NCBI GenBank assembly: GCA_963834685.1
Contig: CAWICW010000040.1
Span: 10,124 to 34,123, forward strand
Source of the DNA: an uncultured Actinomycetes bacterium
GTDB lineage: Bacteria > Actinomycetota > Actinomycetes > Streptosporangiales > Streptosporangiaceae
Direction of reading: 5' to 3'
Length of the DNA: 24,000 bases
Part shown: positions 8,413 to 24,000 of the stretch, one piece after another
How positions within the stretch are numbered: the stretch's first letter is position 1
How the letters are laid out: each line of letters begins with the position of its first letter
Notes under the pieces: generated by a model
What the model was told of the DNA's origin: nothing
Seen by the model: the letters and a program-made list of their open reading frames with translations, nothing else
Database searches by the model: none
Translations under genes and position numbers: made by a program

Positions 8413-9408
8413 CTACGGGCCTGTGCCGAACACCCTGCTGACCCGGATGTCGTCGGGCTCGAGGCGGATGAGGTCATCCCTGCCGACCAGGGCGCCCGCG
8501 GCGACCAGGCGGCTGGCCTGGCGCAGCCGCATCCGGTCGATGGCGTTGCGGACGCTGCGGGCGTTGGCGAACCGGGGCTGGGCCATGCGCCGCGCCATGT
8601 ACTCGCGGAAGGCCTGGCGGGCCGCGGGCGAGAACCGGTGGCTCTCCTGGGCCACCATGAGGTCGGCGATGCGGACCAGCTCGTCCAGGGTGAAGTCGGG
8701 GAAGTCGATGTGGTGCGCGATGCGGGAGGCCATCCCGGGGTTGGAGGTGAAGAACGAATCCATCCGGTCCCGGTAGCCGGCCAGGATGACCACCAGGTCG
8801 TCGCGCTGGGCCTCCATGACCTGCAGCAGGATCTCGATCGCCTCCTGGCCGTAGTCGCGCTCGCTGTCGGCCCGGTACAGGTAGTAGGCCTCGTCGATGA
8901 GCAGCACCCCGCCCATGGCCCGCTTGAGCACCGCCTTGGTCTTCGGCGCGGTGTGCCCGACGTACTCTCCGACCAGGTCGTCACGGGTGACGCTGACCAG
9001 GTGGCCCTGGCGCAGGTAGCCCAGGTGATTGAGGATCTCGGCCATGCGCAGCGCGACCGTGGTCTTGCCCGTGCCGGGGCTGCCGGTGAAGCACATGTGC
9101 AGCGTGGGGCGGGACGCCTTGAGGCCGAAGCGGGCGCGGAGCTGGTCGACGAGGAGCAGCGCGGCGATCTCGCGGACCCGGGTCTTGACCGGGGCGATGC
9201 CGACGAGTTCGGCGTCGAGCTGGCCGAGGAGGCCGGCGATGGCCAGCTGCTTCTGCCAGGCGCCGAGGTCGACCAGGGCGTCGTCGGCGAGGGGTTCGTC
9301 CCGTTCCGGGCCGGGCGCGGCTTCGGGAGCGGGAGCTTGGGGAGCGGGAGCTTGGGGAGCGGGAGCTTCGCGGCCGGGGGCGGGCATGGCGAAGCCTGGC
9401 GCGGTCAT
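8413..9408 (-). CDS. cbbX: CbbX, AAA+ RuBisCO activase (red-type)
   Basis: It aligns closely with CbbX as I remember it: Walker [21 protein letters not shown], then [70 protein letters not shown] and [12 protein letters not shown]. The ATG at 9408 overlaps the cbbS stop (ATGA). The 427-aa track ORF over-extends into cbbS. Confidence 0.93.
9321..9369. repeat. 15-bp tandem repeat (cttggggagcgggag, about 3.3 copies) inside the 5' end of cbbX, encoding [16 protein letters not shown]
   Basis: Read directly. It keeps the reading frame (15 = 5 codons) and lies in an N-terminal extension ahead of the conserved CbbX core. Confidence 0.85.
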
Positions 9409-9836
9409 CCGCGGGGCTCTCCGTAACGCTGGCCGTGGGGCTGGCGGGCGGCGTAGGGGGACAGGGTGTAGCGGATGTGCCGGTCGCTGGCCTCCTGCCG
9501 CTCCAGCCGGAAGCCCGGCTCGTCCGGCGGGCGGTGCACGATGAAGCTCAGCGCCGTGGTCTGCCGGCCGTAGCTCGAGTCGTAGGCCGAGACCCGCACG
9601 TAGCGGTGCGGATAGGTGGCGCGGCAGGCGCGGATCTCGGCCAGCCCGGCCGAGGCGTCGGCGATGTCGAACATCGGCAGCCCCCACATCTCCCACAGGT
9701 TGTTACGGGGATGCGGGTCGTCGGTGAACTCGACCGCGACGGCCCAGCCCGCTTCGATGGCGTACTGGAGCTGGGCGGCGATCTCCTCGTCGGTCAGGTC
9801 GGGCAGGTAGGAGAAGGTGCCCTGGGTAATGCGCAC
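9405..9836 (-). CDS. cbbS: RuBisCO small subunit, red-type form I
   Basis: [57 protein letters not shown] matches red-type (IC/IE-like) CbbS. GTG start at 9836 with AGGGAG 6 nt upstream. It begins 16 nt after the cbbL stop. Confidence 0.93.
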
Positions 9837-9852
9837 GGCTGGCTCCCTGTGG

Positions 9853-11283
9853 CTAGCGGACCGGGGTGGCGACGGCGTCGGGGGTATCGGTGGACTCGTA
9901 CTCGAAGCTGATGTCCCCCCAGGTGTCCAGGGCGGCCTGCAGCGGGGCGCAGTGCCGGGCCGCGGCGCGGAGGATCTCCTCGCCCTCGGCCAGGTAGTCC
10001 CGGCCCTCGTTGCGCGCCTTGATCATCGCCTCGACCGCGACCCGGTTCGCGGTGGCGCCGGCCGCGACGCCCATCGGGTGCCCGATCGTGCCGCCGCCGA
10101 ACTGCAGGACCACGTCCTCGCCGAGGTAGTGCAGCAGCTGGTGCATCTGGCCGGCGTGGATGCCGCCCGAGGCCACCGGCATGACGCCGGGCATGGAGCC
10201 CCAGTCCTGATCGAAGTAGATGCCGCGGGACGCGTCGGCCGGGACGAAGGAAAGGCGGCACGTGTCGTAGTAGCCGCGGGTGGTGCTGGGGTCGCCCTCG
10301 AGCTTGCCGACCACGGTGCCCGCGTGGATGTGGTCCACGCCGAGCAGGCGGCACCACTTGGCGATGACCCGGAAGCTGACGCCGTGGGTCTTCTGCCGGG
10401 TGTAGGTGGAGTGGCCGGCCCGGTGCAGGTGCAGCAGCATCCCGTTGGCGCGCGCCCAGTTCGACATGGAATGCAGCGCGGTATATCCGACGGTGAGGTC
10501 GACCATGACGATAACGCTGCCGAGGTCGCGGGCGAATTCGGCGCGCTCGTACATCTGCTCCATGGTGGCGGCGGTGACGTTGAGATAATGACCCTTGATC
10601 TCGCCGGTCTGCTCGGCGGCGCGGTTCACCGCCTCCATGACGAACAGGTACCGGTCGCGCCAGCGCATGAACGGCTGGGAATTGATGTTCTCGTCGTCCT
10701 TGGTGAAGTCGAGCCCGCCGCGCAGGGCCTCGTACACCACGCGGCCGTAGTTGCGGGCGCTTAGGCCGAGCTTGGGCTTGGTCGTCGCGCCGAGCAGCGG
10801 GCGGCCGTACTTGTCCAGGTACTCGCGTTCGGTGACGATGCCGTGCGGCGGGCCGGTGAATGTCTTCACGTAAGCCAAGGGGATCCGCAGGTCCTCCAGG
10901 CGCAGCGCGCGCAGGGCCTTGAAACCAAACACGTTACCGATGATCGAGGACGTGAGGTTGGGGATCGAGCCCTCTTCGAACAGGTCGATGTCGTAGGCGA
11001 CATAGGCGATGTACTCGCCGTCCCGGCCCGGCGCCGGGAGTACCTGGTAGCACTTGGCCTGGTAGTGCTCGTAGGCGGTGAGCCGGTCGGTCCACACCAC
11101 GGTCCAGGTCGCGGTGGAGGATTCCCCGGCCACCGCGGCGCCCGCTTCCTCCGGAGGGACGCCGGGCTGCGGCGTGACCCGGAAGGCGGCCAGGATATCG
11201 GTGGCCTTCGGCTGGTAATCGGGCTGGTAATAGCCCATCTCGGCGTAGGGGATGACCCCGGCATTCCACCGGCTCGCCGCCAT
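9853..11283 (-). CDS. cbbL: RuBisCO large subunit, form I
   Basis: Diagnostic motifs: [16 protein letters not shown] (carbamylated Lys region), [22 protein letters not shown] and [13 protein letters not shown] prefer the ATG at 11283, which has GAGGAG 6 nt upstream. The ORF-track start at 11325 is an alternative. Confidence 0.95.
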
Positions 11284-22743: not shown

Positions 22744-22744
22744 C

Positions 22745-23464
22745 ATGGCGGACCTCATCTTCGGCTGCACGGGCGCGACCGCGGAACGGTACGCGGCGAC
22801 CCCGACGCTCACGTTCGCGCTGACCATCACCGAGCGTTCCGGCGTGCGGGTGCACGCCATCGCGCTGCGCTGCCAGATCCGCATCGAACCGCACCGCCGG
22901 CGATACTCCGCGGCCGAGGCGCAGCGGCTGCACGACTTGTTCGGTGACCCGTCGCGGTGGGCCGAGACGGTCAAGCCGATCCAGCTCGCCACGGTGACCA
23001 CGATGGTGCCCACGTTCACCGCGGTGACCGAGACCAACGTGGAGGTGCCGGTCACCTATGACCTGGAGGTGACGTCGGCCCGCTACCTGTACGGGCTGGA
23101 CGACGGCACGGTCCCGCTGCTCCTGCTGTTCAGCGGGACCGTCTTCGTGGCCAACGGCGACGGCTTCTCGGTCGAGCTGGTGCCGTGGAGCGCCGAGGCC
23201 TCCTACCGGATGCCGGTGAGCATCTGGCGGGAGCTGGCCGACGTCCACTTCCCCAACAGCGCGTGGCTGCGCTGCAGCCGCGAGACGCTGGACGAGCTGT
23301 CGGCGTTCAAGGCCAAGCGCGCCCTGCCCACCTGGGACTCCACCCTGGAGGCCTTGCTGGCCGAGGCCCGCCAGGCCGAATCGGGCGCTTTGGCGGCTGG
23401 CTCCGCCGCGGAGCCTGGGGCCGGCCCGGACCCGGACGATCCGGCGGAGGCGAGACAGCCATGA
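22745..23464 (+). CDS. Conserved hypothetical protein of hydrogenase clusters (I recall this family as DUF6084 but cannot verify)
   Basis: 239 aa, starting 1 nt after the previous stop, with high GC3. The sequence looks non-repetitive and globular (TLTFALTITERSGVRVHAIALRCQIRIEP...LLLLFSGTVFV), with an acidic/Pro-rich tail. Confidence 0.7.
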   Translation: MADLIFGCTGATAERYAATPTLTFALTITERSGVRVHAIALRCQIRIEPHRRRYSAAEAQRLHDLFGDPSRWAETVKPIQLATVTTMVPTFTAVTETNVEVPVTYDLEVTSARYLYGLDDGTVPLLLLFSGTVFVANGDGFSVELVPWSAEASYRMPVSIWRELADVHFPNSAWLRCSRETLDELSAFKAKRALPTWDSTLEALLAEARQAESGALAAGSAAEPGAGPDPDDPAEARQP

Positions 23465-24000
23465 CCGACGCGGGCGTGAACCTCGACGCGGTGCGCCGCA
23501 TCGCCGACGCCGTCCTCTACGAGGGTTACATCCTGTACCCGTACCGGGCCTCATCCCAGAAGAACCGCAGCCGCTGGCAGTTCGGCGTGGTCATGGCGCC
23601 CGGGTACGCCGCGGTCGATCCCTCGGAGAGCAGCGTCACCCAGTCCGAGTGGGTGCTCGAGCACTCCGGGCAGCCCGCCGTCCAGGTCATCCTGCGGTTC
23701 CTGCACGTTCAGCGGCGCAGCACCGAAGGCGCGGCGGGCGCCTGGGACGAGGCGGTGGAACGCGAGATCGAGTTCACCGCCGGTCCCGACGACCTGCTCG
23801 GCCCGGGCCTGGTCAGGGAGTTCTCGATCCCCGGCGGGGAAGATCGCGAACCATCCGCAGACGCGGGGATGGCAGTCCGGCACCGGGAACCCCTGGCCGG
23901 CCTGGTTTGCGTGCGCACCACCCCGGTGCCGGGCCCGTGGCGGGCGGTCCGGCTCCAGGTCAAGGTGGAGAACCGGACCACGGCCGAGCCCGCGCCCGCG
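23461..24000 (+). CDS. Conserved hypothetical protein, 5' part only (runs off the right edge)
   Basis: It is not in the ORF track because it has no stop in the window. The ATG at 23461 overlaps the previous stop (ATGA). 180 codons are open to the edge with high GC3: MTDAGVNLDAVRRIADAVLYEGYILYPYRASSQKNRSRWQFGVVMAPGY... Confidence 0.65.
   Translation, partial: MTDAGVNLDAVRRIADAVLYEGYILYPYRASSQKNRSRWQFGVVMAPGYAAVDPSESSVTQSEWVLEHSGQPAVQVILRFLHVQRRSTEGAAGAWDEAVEREIEFTAGPDDLLGPGLVREFSIPGGEDREPSADAGMAVRHREPLAGLVCVRTTPVPGPWRAVRLQVKVENRTTAEPAPA

Follow-up and report, generated by a model that had tools for sequence, protein, structure and literature searches.

A Calvin-Benson-Bassham gene cassette lies beside a predicted group 1h [NiFe]-hydrogenase cluster in an uncultured actinobacterium

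A CO2 fixation cassette adjoins a hydrogenase cluster

We analyzed a 24,000-nucleotide stretch of DNA from an uncultured member of the Streptosporangiaceae (assembly GCA_963834685.1, contig CAWICW010000040.1, positions 10,124 to 34,123; hereafter the window), in which genes for RuBisCO (ribulose bisphosphate carboxylase/oxygenase) and the CBB (Calvin-Benson-Bassham) cycle lie 1.9 kb from those of an Hhy-type [NiFe]-hydrogenase. The source is probably a high-GC, Trebonia-like actinobacterium of the order Streptosporangiales. The window holds two adjacent modules. The first (about 8281 to 16508) is a self-contained CBB cassette, in which genes for a response regulator (RR) and a histidine kinase (HK) are followed by cbbL, cbbS, and cbbX on the minus strand, while prk, lysR, and fba run on the plus strand. 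The second, which starts at about 16509 and runs past 24000, is an hhy cluster of the standard cytoplasmic group 1h kind; ahead of it, in this lineage, lies a divergent gene pair encoding a YceI-like protein and a helix-turn-helix (HTH) protein. We consider it likely, from what is known of the two enzyme families, that energy derived from the Hhy hydrogenase aids CO2 fixation by the neighboring cassette. An earlier note on this DNA had described both sets of genes as packed into one island; the adjacency is true, but the two modules appear to have been inherited independently and do not form one ancestral unit.

Coding frames were chosen by third-position GC and then checked with Pfam and NCBIfam, and all genes named in the earlier note were recovered where it had placed them. 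To find cbb loci of relatives, species-representative genomes were probed with phosphoribulokinase (PRK), the product of the mid-island gene, and the loci were taken with 10-kb flanks. Loci L001 to L003 belong to the closest metagenome-assembled genomes (MAGs) by PRK (82 to 84% identical to the window PRK), L026 is a Micromonosporaceae MAG locus, and L025, L018, L027, L007, and L008 are other related cassette loci. L009 is a 174-kb contig carrying the closest HhyL relative (92% identical), and L010 and L011 are Trebonia MAG loci used for the hhy comparison. L019 to L022 are the four contigs fetched out of 18 JGI soil-metagenome contigs and come from four samples. Finally, L013 and L015 lie on plasmid unnamed1 of Mycobacterium intracellulare subsp. 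chimaera AH16 (NZ_CP012886.2, ~321 to 385 kb).

The hydrogenase is predicted to belong to group 1h

The two hydrogenase subunits are encoded by hhyS (18353 to 19396, plus strand) and hhyL (19404 to 21212, plus strand). Compared with solved structures, HhyL matched the large subunit of the group 1h enzyme 5AA5 (chain C) with 1063 bits and 78.5% identity, the next-best [NiFe]-hydrogenase reaching 142 bits, and HhyS matched the small subunit (5AA5_A) with 558 bits, against 137 bits for the runner-up. The group 2a hydrogenase Huc (7UTD) scored just 111 bits with HhyL and 100 bits with HhyS. HhyL carries an exact L1 motif, TSRICGICGDNH, at residues 74 to 85 (19623 to 19658) and an exact L2 motif, SFDPCLPCGVH, at residues 570 to 580 (21111 to 21143), followed by a 22-residue tail; both are signatures of group 1h, also known as group 5 (PMC5364354, PMC10080006). 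The earlier note had read HhyL as bearing group 1h signatures and HhyS as lacking a twin-arginine leader, and both statements hold. The N-terminus of HhyS is MTQAAEEPVLHILW; no RRxF motif of a twin-arginine translocation (Tat) signal was found in its first 60 residues, and there is no in-frame start codon upstream. HhyS aligned to the soluble small subunit HofK of 5AA5 as far as residue 344 of 347 and has no C-terminal membrane anchor. Its proximal-cluster motif, GLGCDGDS, is that of HofK, with aspartate in place of the fourth cysteine. The absence of a Tat signal and the aspartate ligand at the proximal cluster are hallmarks of group 1h (PMC5364354, PMC10080006), and the role of this aspartate has been described (PMC5364354).

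Downstream of hhyL, the cluster continues on the plus strand with genes for a NifU-like accessory protein (21368 to 21931; PF01106), a DUF5947 accessory protein (21928 to 22743; PF19372, E = 6e-70), and a DUF6084 accessory protein (22745 to 23464; PF19562, E = 1.6e-87), and then with an open reading frame (ORF) for a hypothetical protein that stays open to the window end (23461 to 24000). This last ORF gave no match in a Pfam search; it is the start of a conserved protein of ~330 to 470 residues found 3′ of DUF6084 in hhy clusters, with 41 to 42% identity to its counterparts in L009 and on the Mycobacterium plasmid. The hhy cluster thus runs past the window edge. The order hhyS-hhyL-NifU-like-DUF5947-DUF6084-hypothetical also occurs in the hhy clusters of Kitasatospora, Streptomyces, and Mycobacterium. 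Given the motifs, the score margins of both subunits, the missing Tat leader, and the order of the accessory genes, we assign the hydrogenase to group 1h, a call that the level of identity makes safe, that was made against a reference set without groups 1l and 1m, and that concerns class rather than the biochemical properties of H2 affinity and O2 insensitivity. Group 1h is preferred over groups 1l and 1m because the small and large subunit genes are adjacent and HhyL is 78.5% identical to a 1h enzyme. Not all 1h enzymes have a high affinity for H2.

We also noted that RefSeq plasmid records consistently name HhyS "hydrogenase expression protein HypE" (L015, 41684 to 42739; L023, 6953 to 8014; L024, 6920 to 8008), which looks like a systematic misannotation.

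The RuBisCO is predicted to be an intact red-type enzyme of form IE

The large subunit gene cbbL (9853 to 11283, minus strand) encodes a protein of 476 residues, an exact copy of which is present in the public collection; the ORF could begin at 11325, and homologues favor the ATG at 11283. CbbL scored 770 bits with the RuBisCO large subunit model NF003252 (cutoff, 438 bits). All 17 active-site residues checked are conserved, including K175, K177, K201, D203, E204, H294, R295, H327, K334, S379, G403, and G404 (plant numbering). The small subunit gene cbbS (9405 to 9836, minus strand; PF00101, E = 1e-37) encodes the N-terminus that the earlier note had quoted, the first residue being methionine or valine. 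Next to it, cbbX (8413 to 9408, minus strand) encodes a red-type RuBisCO activase of the AAA+ type with Pfam AAA and AAA_lid_6 domains, a Walker A motif (GSPGTGKT), and a Walker B motif (VLLIDE), and its product exceeds the equivalog cutoff of TIGR02880 (468.3 versus 459 bits). This CbbX bears a Pro/Ala-rich N-terminal extension of ~45 residues (9270 to 9408, minus strand), the conserved CbbX domain starting from residue 48. The best PDB matches of CbbL were the enzymes of Galdieria (form ID) and of Rhodobacter sphaeroides and Cupriavidus necator (form IC), at 790 to 800 bits, green-type enzymes following at ~660 to 690 bits. With CbbX above its equivalog cutoff and red-type ID and IC enzymes as the closest solved relatives, the red-type form I identity put forward in the earlier note stands, and the enzyme is predicted from its conserved active-site residues to be catalytically intact and functional.

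That note had left the choice between forms IC and IE to a phylogeny. We therefore built a neighbor-joining (NJ) tree of CbbL from 453 columns with 200 bootstraps, rooted on a plant enzyme, with 1BXN, 5NV3, and the Nitrobacter and Phyllobacterium plasmid sequences as form IC references, Galdieria as the form ID reference, and named actinobacterial relatives together with the Mycobacterium plasmid copy. The window CbbL fell in an actinobacterial clade (88% bootstrap) with Mycobacterium, Carbonactinospora, Thermomonospora, Acidimicrobiia, and Solirubrobacteraceae, and forms IC and ID made up a separate clade (99% bootstrap). The taxa of the actinobacterial clade are listed as form IE carriers (PMC9561532). 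Since CbbL groups with these taxa and outside IC and ID, it resolves to predicted form IE in what is a small, distance-based tree without curated IE references.

The cassette also encodes a cyanobacterial/plant-like PRK (prk, 13396 to 14328, plus strand; PF00485), which scored 355 bits with NF005655 (cutoff, 236 bits), so that the pair of RuBisCO and PRK by which a CBB cycle is recognized is present. The last gene of the plus-strand group is fba (15383 to 16483), for a class I fructose-bisphosphate aldolase (PF00274; NF033379, 432 versus 250 bits).

Composite origin and shared adjacency of the two modules

To judge how the two modules came together, we compared the window with its relatives. 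In L001 to L003, cbbX-cbbS-cbbL-HK-RR and a divergent PRK-LysR pair are present, and no hydrogenase or hyp gene lies within the 10-kb flanks; L025 too carries this 7-gene core (lysR-prk and RR-HK-cbbLSX) without hhy. Conversely, in L009, MFS-TetR-GNAT genes and YceI-HTH-hhyS-hhyL-NifU-DUF5947-DUF6084 flank 3.2 kb of unrelated genes that take the place of the window's cbb cassette. In a DNA alignment, window positions 4909 to 8280 and 16509 to 24000 are syntenic with L009, and 8281 to 16508 are not. The Trebonia MAGs have HypF-YceI-HTH-hhySL, and cbb genes are absent. On the strength of this synteny, we assign the YceI-HTH pair, in this lineage, to the hhy module and the RR, HK, and LysR genes to the cbb cassette, and it appears from the same comparison that the cassette was gained, or was lost in relatives, at a variable site beside hhy.

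The adjacency itself is real and common to a lineage. A protein look-up found a CbbL 95% identical to that of the window on the 18 JGI contigs. The four contigs fetched share the order hhyL-hhyS, HTH-YceI, two small genes, fba-lysR-prk, RR-HK-cbbLSX, one gene, and TetR-MFS, and they are collinear with window positions 4820 to 19853 at 84 to 95% DNA identity. A chimeric assembly had to be considered, as the source is a MAG contig, exact copies of its proteins mapping to a single NCBI/ENA contig of 75.8 kb, and as, in comparison with its relatives, the window is unusual in having cleanly lost the DNA between the genes of two convergent pairs (see below). Because contigs from four separate samples keep the same order across both junctions, we regard such an artefact as ruled out for practical purposes and its probability as very small. 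The composition of the DNA agrees with this: the window has a GC content of ~71%, and within it we saw neither a compositional anomaly of the cbb cassette nor a break at its junctions. Our search of the window for an integration site gave no match to a tRNA or an Rfam noncoding RNA.

The cassette also occurs in mobile surroundings. In L025 it sits beside three transposase genes, and in L018 a resolvase, DDE transposases, and a reverse transcriptase are encoded nearby; the 7-gene core recurs and is probably mobile. A plasmid origin of the island was also considered and rejected, no plasmid record spanning more than 17% of it. In L026, the genes hypF, hypE, hypD, and hypC come immediately after cbbX. 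Counting the window clade, L026, and the Mycobacterium plasmid, the cassette has come to lie against hydrogenase or hyp genes in three lineages and at different junctions. Since these three lineages have the linkage and at least five related arrangements do not, linkage of the cassette to a hydrogenase is recurrent, not obligatory.

These comparisons bear on the main rival to a functional link, namely, an incidental adjacency, in which a mobile cbb cassette would have landed in a variable region beside hhy, Hhy would serve starvation maintenance only, and RuBisCO would be powered by other donors (for instance CO or organic substrates) or would serve mixotrophic CO2 reassimilation or redox balancing. 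It is consistent with this explanation that the cassette is found without hhy in L001 to L003, L025, L027, L007, and L008, that L009 has hhy and no cassette at the same site, that mobile-element genes adjoin the cassette in L018 and L025, and that the two modules form separate transcription units with no common cis-element. Nevertheless, three lineages have independently put the cassette against hydrogenase or hyp genes, and the published co-occurrence of form IE RuBisCO and 1h hydrogenase at the genome level is strong (PMC9561532). We thus hold an incidental adjacency to be possible though rather unlikely and retain the reading in which Hhy-derived energy supports CO2 fixation.

Regulators and candidate cis-elements of the cbb cassette

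Two regulatory genes are placed between cbbL and prk. The first encodes a cytoplasmic sensor histidine kinase with GAF, HisKA_3, and HATPase_c domains (11387 to 12607, minus strand), and the second encodes a NarL/LuxR-family response regulator with Response_reg and GerE domains (12604 to 13266, minus strand). The GAF domain best matched generic GAF domains (3E0Y, and PtsP 3CI6 and 3TRC), and the catalytic core of the kinase resembles DesK and VraS. VraR, DevR (106 bits), and NarL are the closest solved structures of the RR. A DosS/DosT-type heme GAF sensor was tried as an identity for the kinase and rejected, the GAF domain being generic and DevS matching the ATPase domain only (26.7 bits). 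We found no prior report of the two-component system of this cassette in the literature searched, the coverage of which is incomplete. A third regulator is encoded by the LysR-family gene (14331 to 15212, plus strand; HTH_1 and LysR_substrate domains). Its best NCBIfam model was CbbR (NF045990), and because its 162 bits lie under the cutoff of 450, we file it as a predicted LysR-family regulator and call it CbbR-like from its context alone.

Several of these genes overlap or abut. The stop and start codons of cbbS and cbbX overlap in ATGA and those of the RR and kinase genes in TTGA (the kinase starting at TTG), and 2 nucleotides (nt) separate the prk stop codon from the lysR ATG; these junctions indicate likely translational coupling of cbbS with cbbX, of the RR with the kinase, and of prk with lysR. 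The earlier note had spoken of a divergent prk-LysR unit. Divergence does exist at this place, but prk and lysR are codirectional, and it is prk-lysR-fba on the plus strand that diverges from RR-HK-cbbLSX on the minus strand.

The divergent spacer between the RR gene and prk contains the palindrome TCCCCCGGGCGGGGGA (13313 to 13328), which follows the pattern TCCCCC-N3-5-GGGGGA and is present in the window as a single copy, where chance would give 0.03. It was found at the equivalent position in 10 related loci (L001 to L003, L018 to L022, L025, and L026), the rest of the spacer having diverged; it lies at position 9864 in L001, 9901 in L002, 9882 in L003, 5051 in L018, 7862 in L019, 7662 in L025, and 7745 in L026. 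The Mycobacterium plasmid has similar palindromes in two places, next to the RR gene and ~100 nt upstream of nuoA (L013, 3389; L015, 34832); these are individually weak, as 12% and 31% of shuffles match. We propose the palindrome as a candidate operator of the NarL-type RR. The other element of the cassette is TCAATAGAC (11345 to 11353, minus strand), at a distance of 61 nt upstream of the cbbL ATG; it is a candidate promoter of cbbL, activator site, or LysR site. Its count in the window is also one, against a chance expectation of 0.03, and 12 related loci each have a single copy upstream of cbbL, among them L008 and L027, both of which have no RR-HK pair upstream of cbbL. A scan of the window for sigma-70-type promoters found none, and terminator-like sites were not above shuffles.

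A separate regulator and conserved spacer accompany hhyS

The hhy genes have an upstream region of their own. A YceI-like gene (16340 to 17044, minus strand; PF04264) and a gene for an XRE-type HTH protein (17172 to 17795, minus strand; HTH_3 at residues 158 to 202), divergent from hhyS, precede them. The YceI-like gene is also next to HTH-hhyS in L009, L010, and L019, and the gene for the HTH protein is missing from the Streptomycetaceae hhy clusters examined. The N-terminal domain of the HTH protein (17340 to 17741, minus strand) gave a weak, subthreshold match to HATPase_c_2 (E = 0.016, 15.7 bits), and this protein could represent a degenerate kinase-like sensor joined to an XRE-type HTH domain.

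Between the HTH gene and hhyS lies a GC-poorer, conserved noncoding block of ~280 nt (17790 to 18075) that aligns with L009, L010 (Trebonia), and L019. It contains the inverted repeat TAGACA-GTTG-TGTCTA (17852 to 17867), and GACA-N4-TGTC is found at the same place in L009, L010/L011, and L019 to L021. We take the block as probably made up of divergent promoters and an operator. A small ORF or a structured RNA was considered for this leader block and rejected, as it has no conserved ORF, no covariation (term +0.38), and no Rfam match.

The earlier note had credited the island with four private regulators. All four exist, but synteny splits them, the RR, HK, and LysR genes traveling with the cbb cassette and the HTH gene with hhy. 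This split bears on the possibility of a single regulon, with the cbb and hhy promoters both under at least one of these four regulators. Such a regulon would suit modules that lie 1.9 kb apart in an arrangement kept on 18 contigs, and the palindrome upstream of nuoA on the Mycobacterium plasmid hints at a regulon wider than cbb. On the other hand, the Mycobacterium palindromes are the weak ones described above, the palindrome and TCAATAGAC occur once each in the window and in the cbb cassette only, and the hhyS spacer contains a conserved block and an inverted repeat of another kind. Scanning the window, we found neither the palindrome nor TCAATAGAC near hhyS. With no cassette element near hhyS, the sequence lends no support to coregulation of cbb and hhy, and we judge control by a shared regulator to be improbable.

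Neighboring genes and traces of deletion

Two convergent gene pairs, fba/yceI (16478 to 16486) and tetR/GNAT (7845 to 7850), have lost the intergenic DNA that their relatives retain. The DNA gone from these two pairs amounts to 1446 bp in L019 and about 60 to 95 bp in L009. At both pairs, the TAA stop codon of the plus-strand gene now touches the last sense codon of the minus-strand gene; the stop codons of the YceI and GNAT genes are gone, and their frames read antisense into the neighboring gene for 47 and 69 codons. The native part of the YceI-like protein accordingly ends near 16484, the 47 codons beyond being antisense to fba. A look for direct repeats at the junction of the 1446-bp FBA/YceI deletion gave just a 5-nt match, which is uninformative.

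The left flank of the window holds unrelated genes, which include those for a partial thiamine pyrophosphate enzyme, a glyoxalase-family protein, an ABC-2 transporter, an MFS transporter, TetR, and GNAT. Upstream of the ABC-2 transporter, a gene for a CsoR-like metal-sensing repressor is followed by a thioredoxin gene (2391 to 3248, plus strand), both unrelated to cbb and hhy. A gene for an F420-dependent oxidoreductase (~5163 to 5567, minus strand), which is whole in L009 and L019, has lost ~400 nt of its middle in the window, with the junction near 5354 to 5360; what is left of it gave no Pfam match and probably represents a pseudogene.

Proposed link between H2 oxidation and CO2 fixation

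In the reading that we favor, the cytoplasmic Hhy hydrogenase would oxidize H2 and pass the electrons into the aerobic respiratory chain, as expected from knowledge of these enzyme families. The resulting ATP and reductant would help drive a CBB cycle made up of the RuBisCO, CbbX, PRK, and aldolase of the cassette together with housekeeping enzymes. The outcome would be facultative hydrogenotrophic or mixotrophic carbon gain, and the cbb and hhy modules would be regulated separately.

Several points weigh against this reading. The modules are separate transcription units, with fba on the plus strand converging on yceI-HTH on the minus strand and hhySL on the plus strand starting 1.9 kb further on, and no motif shared between the cbb and hhy promoter regions was found in the window. 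The remaining CBB enzymes, the hyp maturation genes, and any NAD(P)H route lie outside the window. Within 10 kb of the cassette, at least five related arrangements lack any hydrogenase or hyp gene, and the form IE assignment leans on the small NJ tree described above. Group 1h enzymes, moreover, are best documented in persistence, not growth.

A broader and more tentative idea is that the 7-gene core is a mobile, self-regulated autotrophy cassette that has been repeatedly selected beside hydrogenase loci, in which the RR-HK pair, acting via the palindrome, would be the main switch of CO2 fixation by form IE RuBisCO, with a regulon that might include nuo in Mycobacterium. We regard this idea as somewhat doubtful and put it forward mainly as a possibility.

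The locus offers a clean genomic example for the hypothesis of trace-gas chemosynthesis in an uncultured soil actinobacterium, with an arrangement that is present on many soil contigs. Both modules are well characterized and stand here in a tight, lineage-specific arrangement, and knowledge of either enzyme family is unchanged. The most original leads are the conserved GAF kinase-NarL regulator pair with its palindrome and the cis-elements of the cassette. The kinase-regulator pair with the palindrome, the cbbL-proximal element, and the hhyS leader block are testable regulatory parts, uncharacterized in the literature searched, and with them one could ask at what times soil actinobacteria turn on CO2 fixation and if H2 acts as the signal.

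Comparison with known systems

The closest published genotype is the "atmospheric chemosynthesis" genotype of Actinomycetota of Ray et al. (2022), who reported the co-occurrence of form IE RuBisCO and 1h hydrogenase in genomes that include those of 76 actinobacterial isolates (PMC9561532). Streptosporangiales isolates are among the 76 with both enzymes, and the lifestyle was already proposed there (PMC9561532). The enzyme pair and the phylum are thus alike; the co-occurrence was described at the genome level without discussion of linkage (PMC9561532), whereas the two sets of genes are 1.9 kb apart here. In the literature searched, the coverage of which is incomplete, we found no paper on the physical linkage of cbb and hhy.

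The Mycobacterium plasmid, a mobilizable replicon of 437 kb from a sputum isolate, has a ~65-kb lithoautotrophy region with two prk genes and two class I aldolase genes. It carries the same cbb kit as the window (NarL-type RR, GAF kinase, class I aldolase, cbbLSX, and prk), adjoining hyp genes, and a complete hhy cluster on the same replicon, with hhyL ~50 kb from cbbL. Its CbbL and HhyL are 80% and 78% identical to those of the window, but its genes are arranged unlike those of the window, over ~65 kb. The order begins with prk-tkt-rpe, RR-GAF kinase, class I aldolase, and cbbLSX, continues with hyp genes, a Huc-like hydrogenase, hypAB, pgk-gap, a second aldolase, FBPase, and PRK, and ends with a nuo operon and the full hhy cluster. 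We speculate that the extra nuo operon fits a need for reverse electron flow to NADH.

The proteobacterial form IC cbb operons of Cupriavidus necator and Rhodobacter share with the window a cluster of red-type cbbLS, cbbX, LysR, and prk genes. They differ in that the window lysR is downstream of prk rather than divergent from cbbL and its product falls below the CbbR cutoff, that a two-component system lies upstream of cbbL, that the aldolase is of class I and not class II, and that the window CbbL falls outside the IC clade. The C. necator megaplasmid bears both cbb and hydrogenase genes. From this same species (also named Ralstonia eutropha), the actinobacterial-type HofK/HofG hydrogenase of 5AA5, formerly placed in group 5, has the same L1 and L2 motifs as the window enzyme, the same GCDGDS motif, and likewise no Tat signal. 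Compared with the hhy clusters of Streptomycetaceae and Mycobacterium that we examined, only the window lineage has the divergent YceI-HTH pair and the conserved hhyS spacer of ~280 nt.

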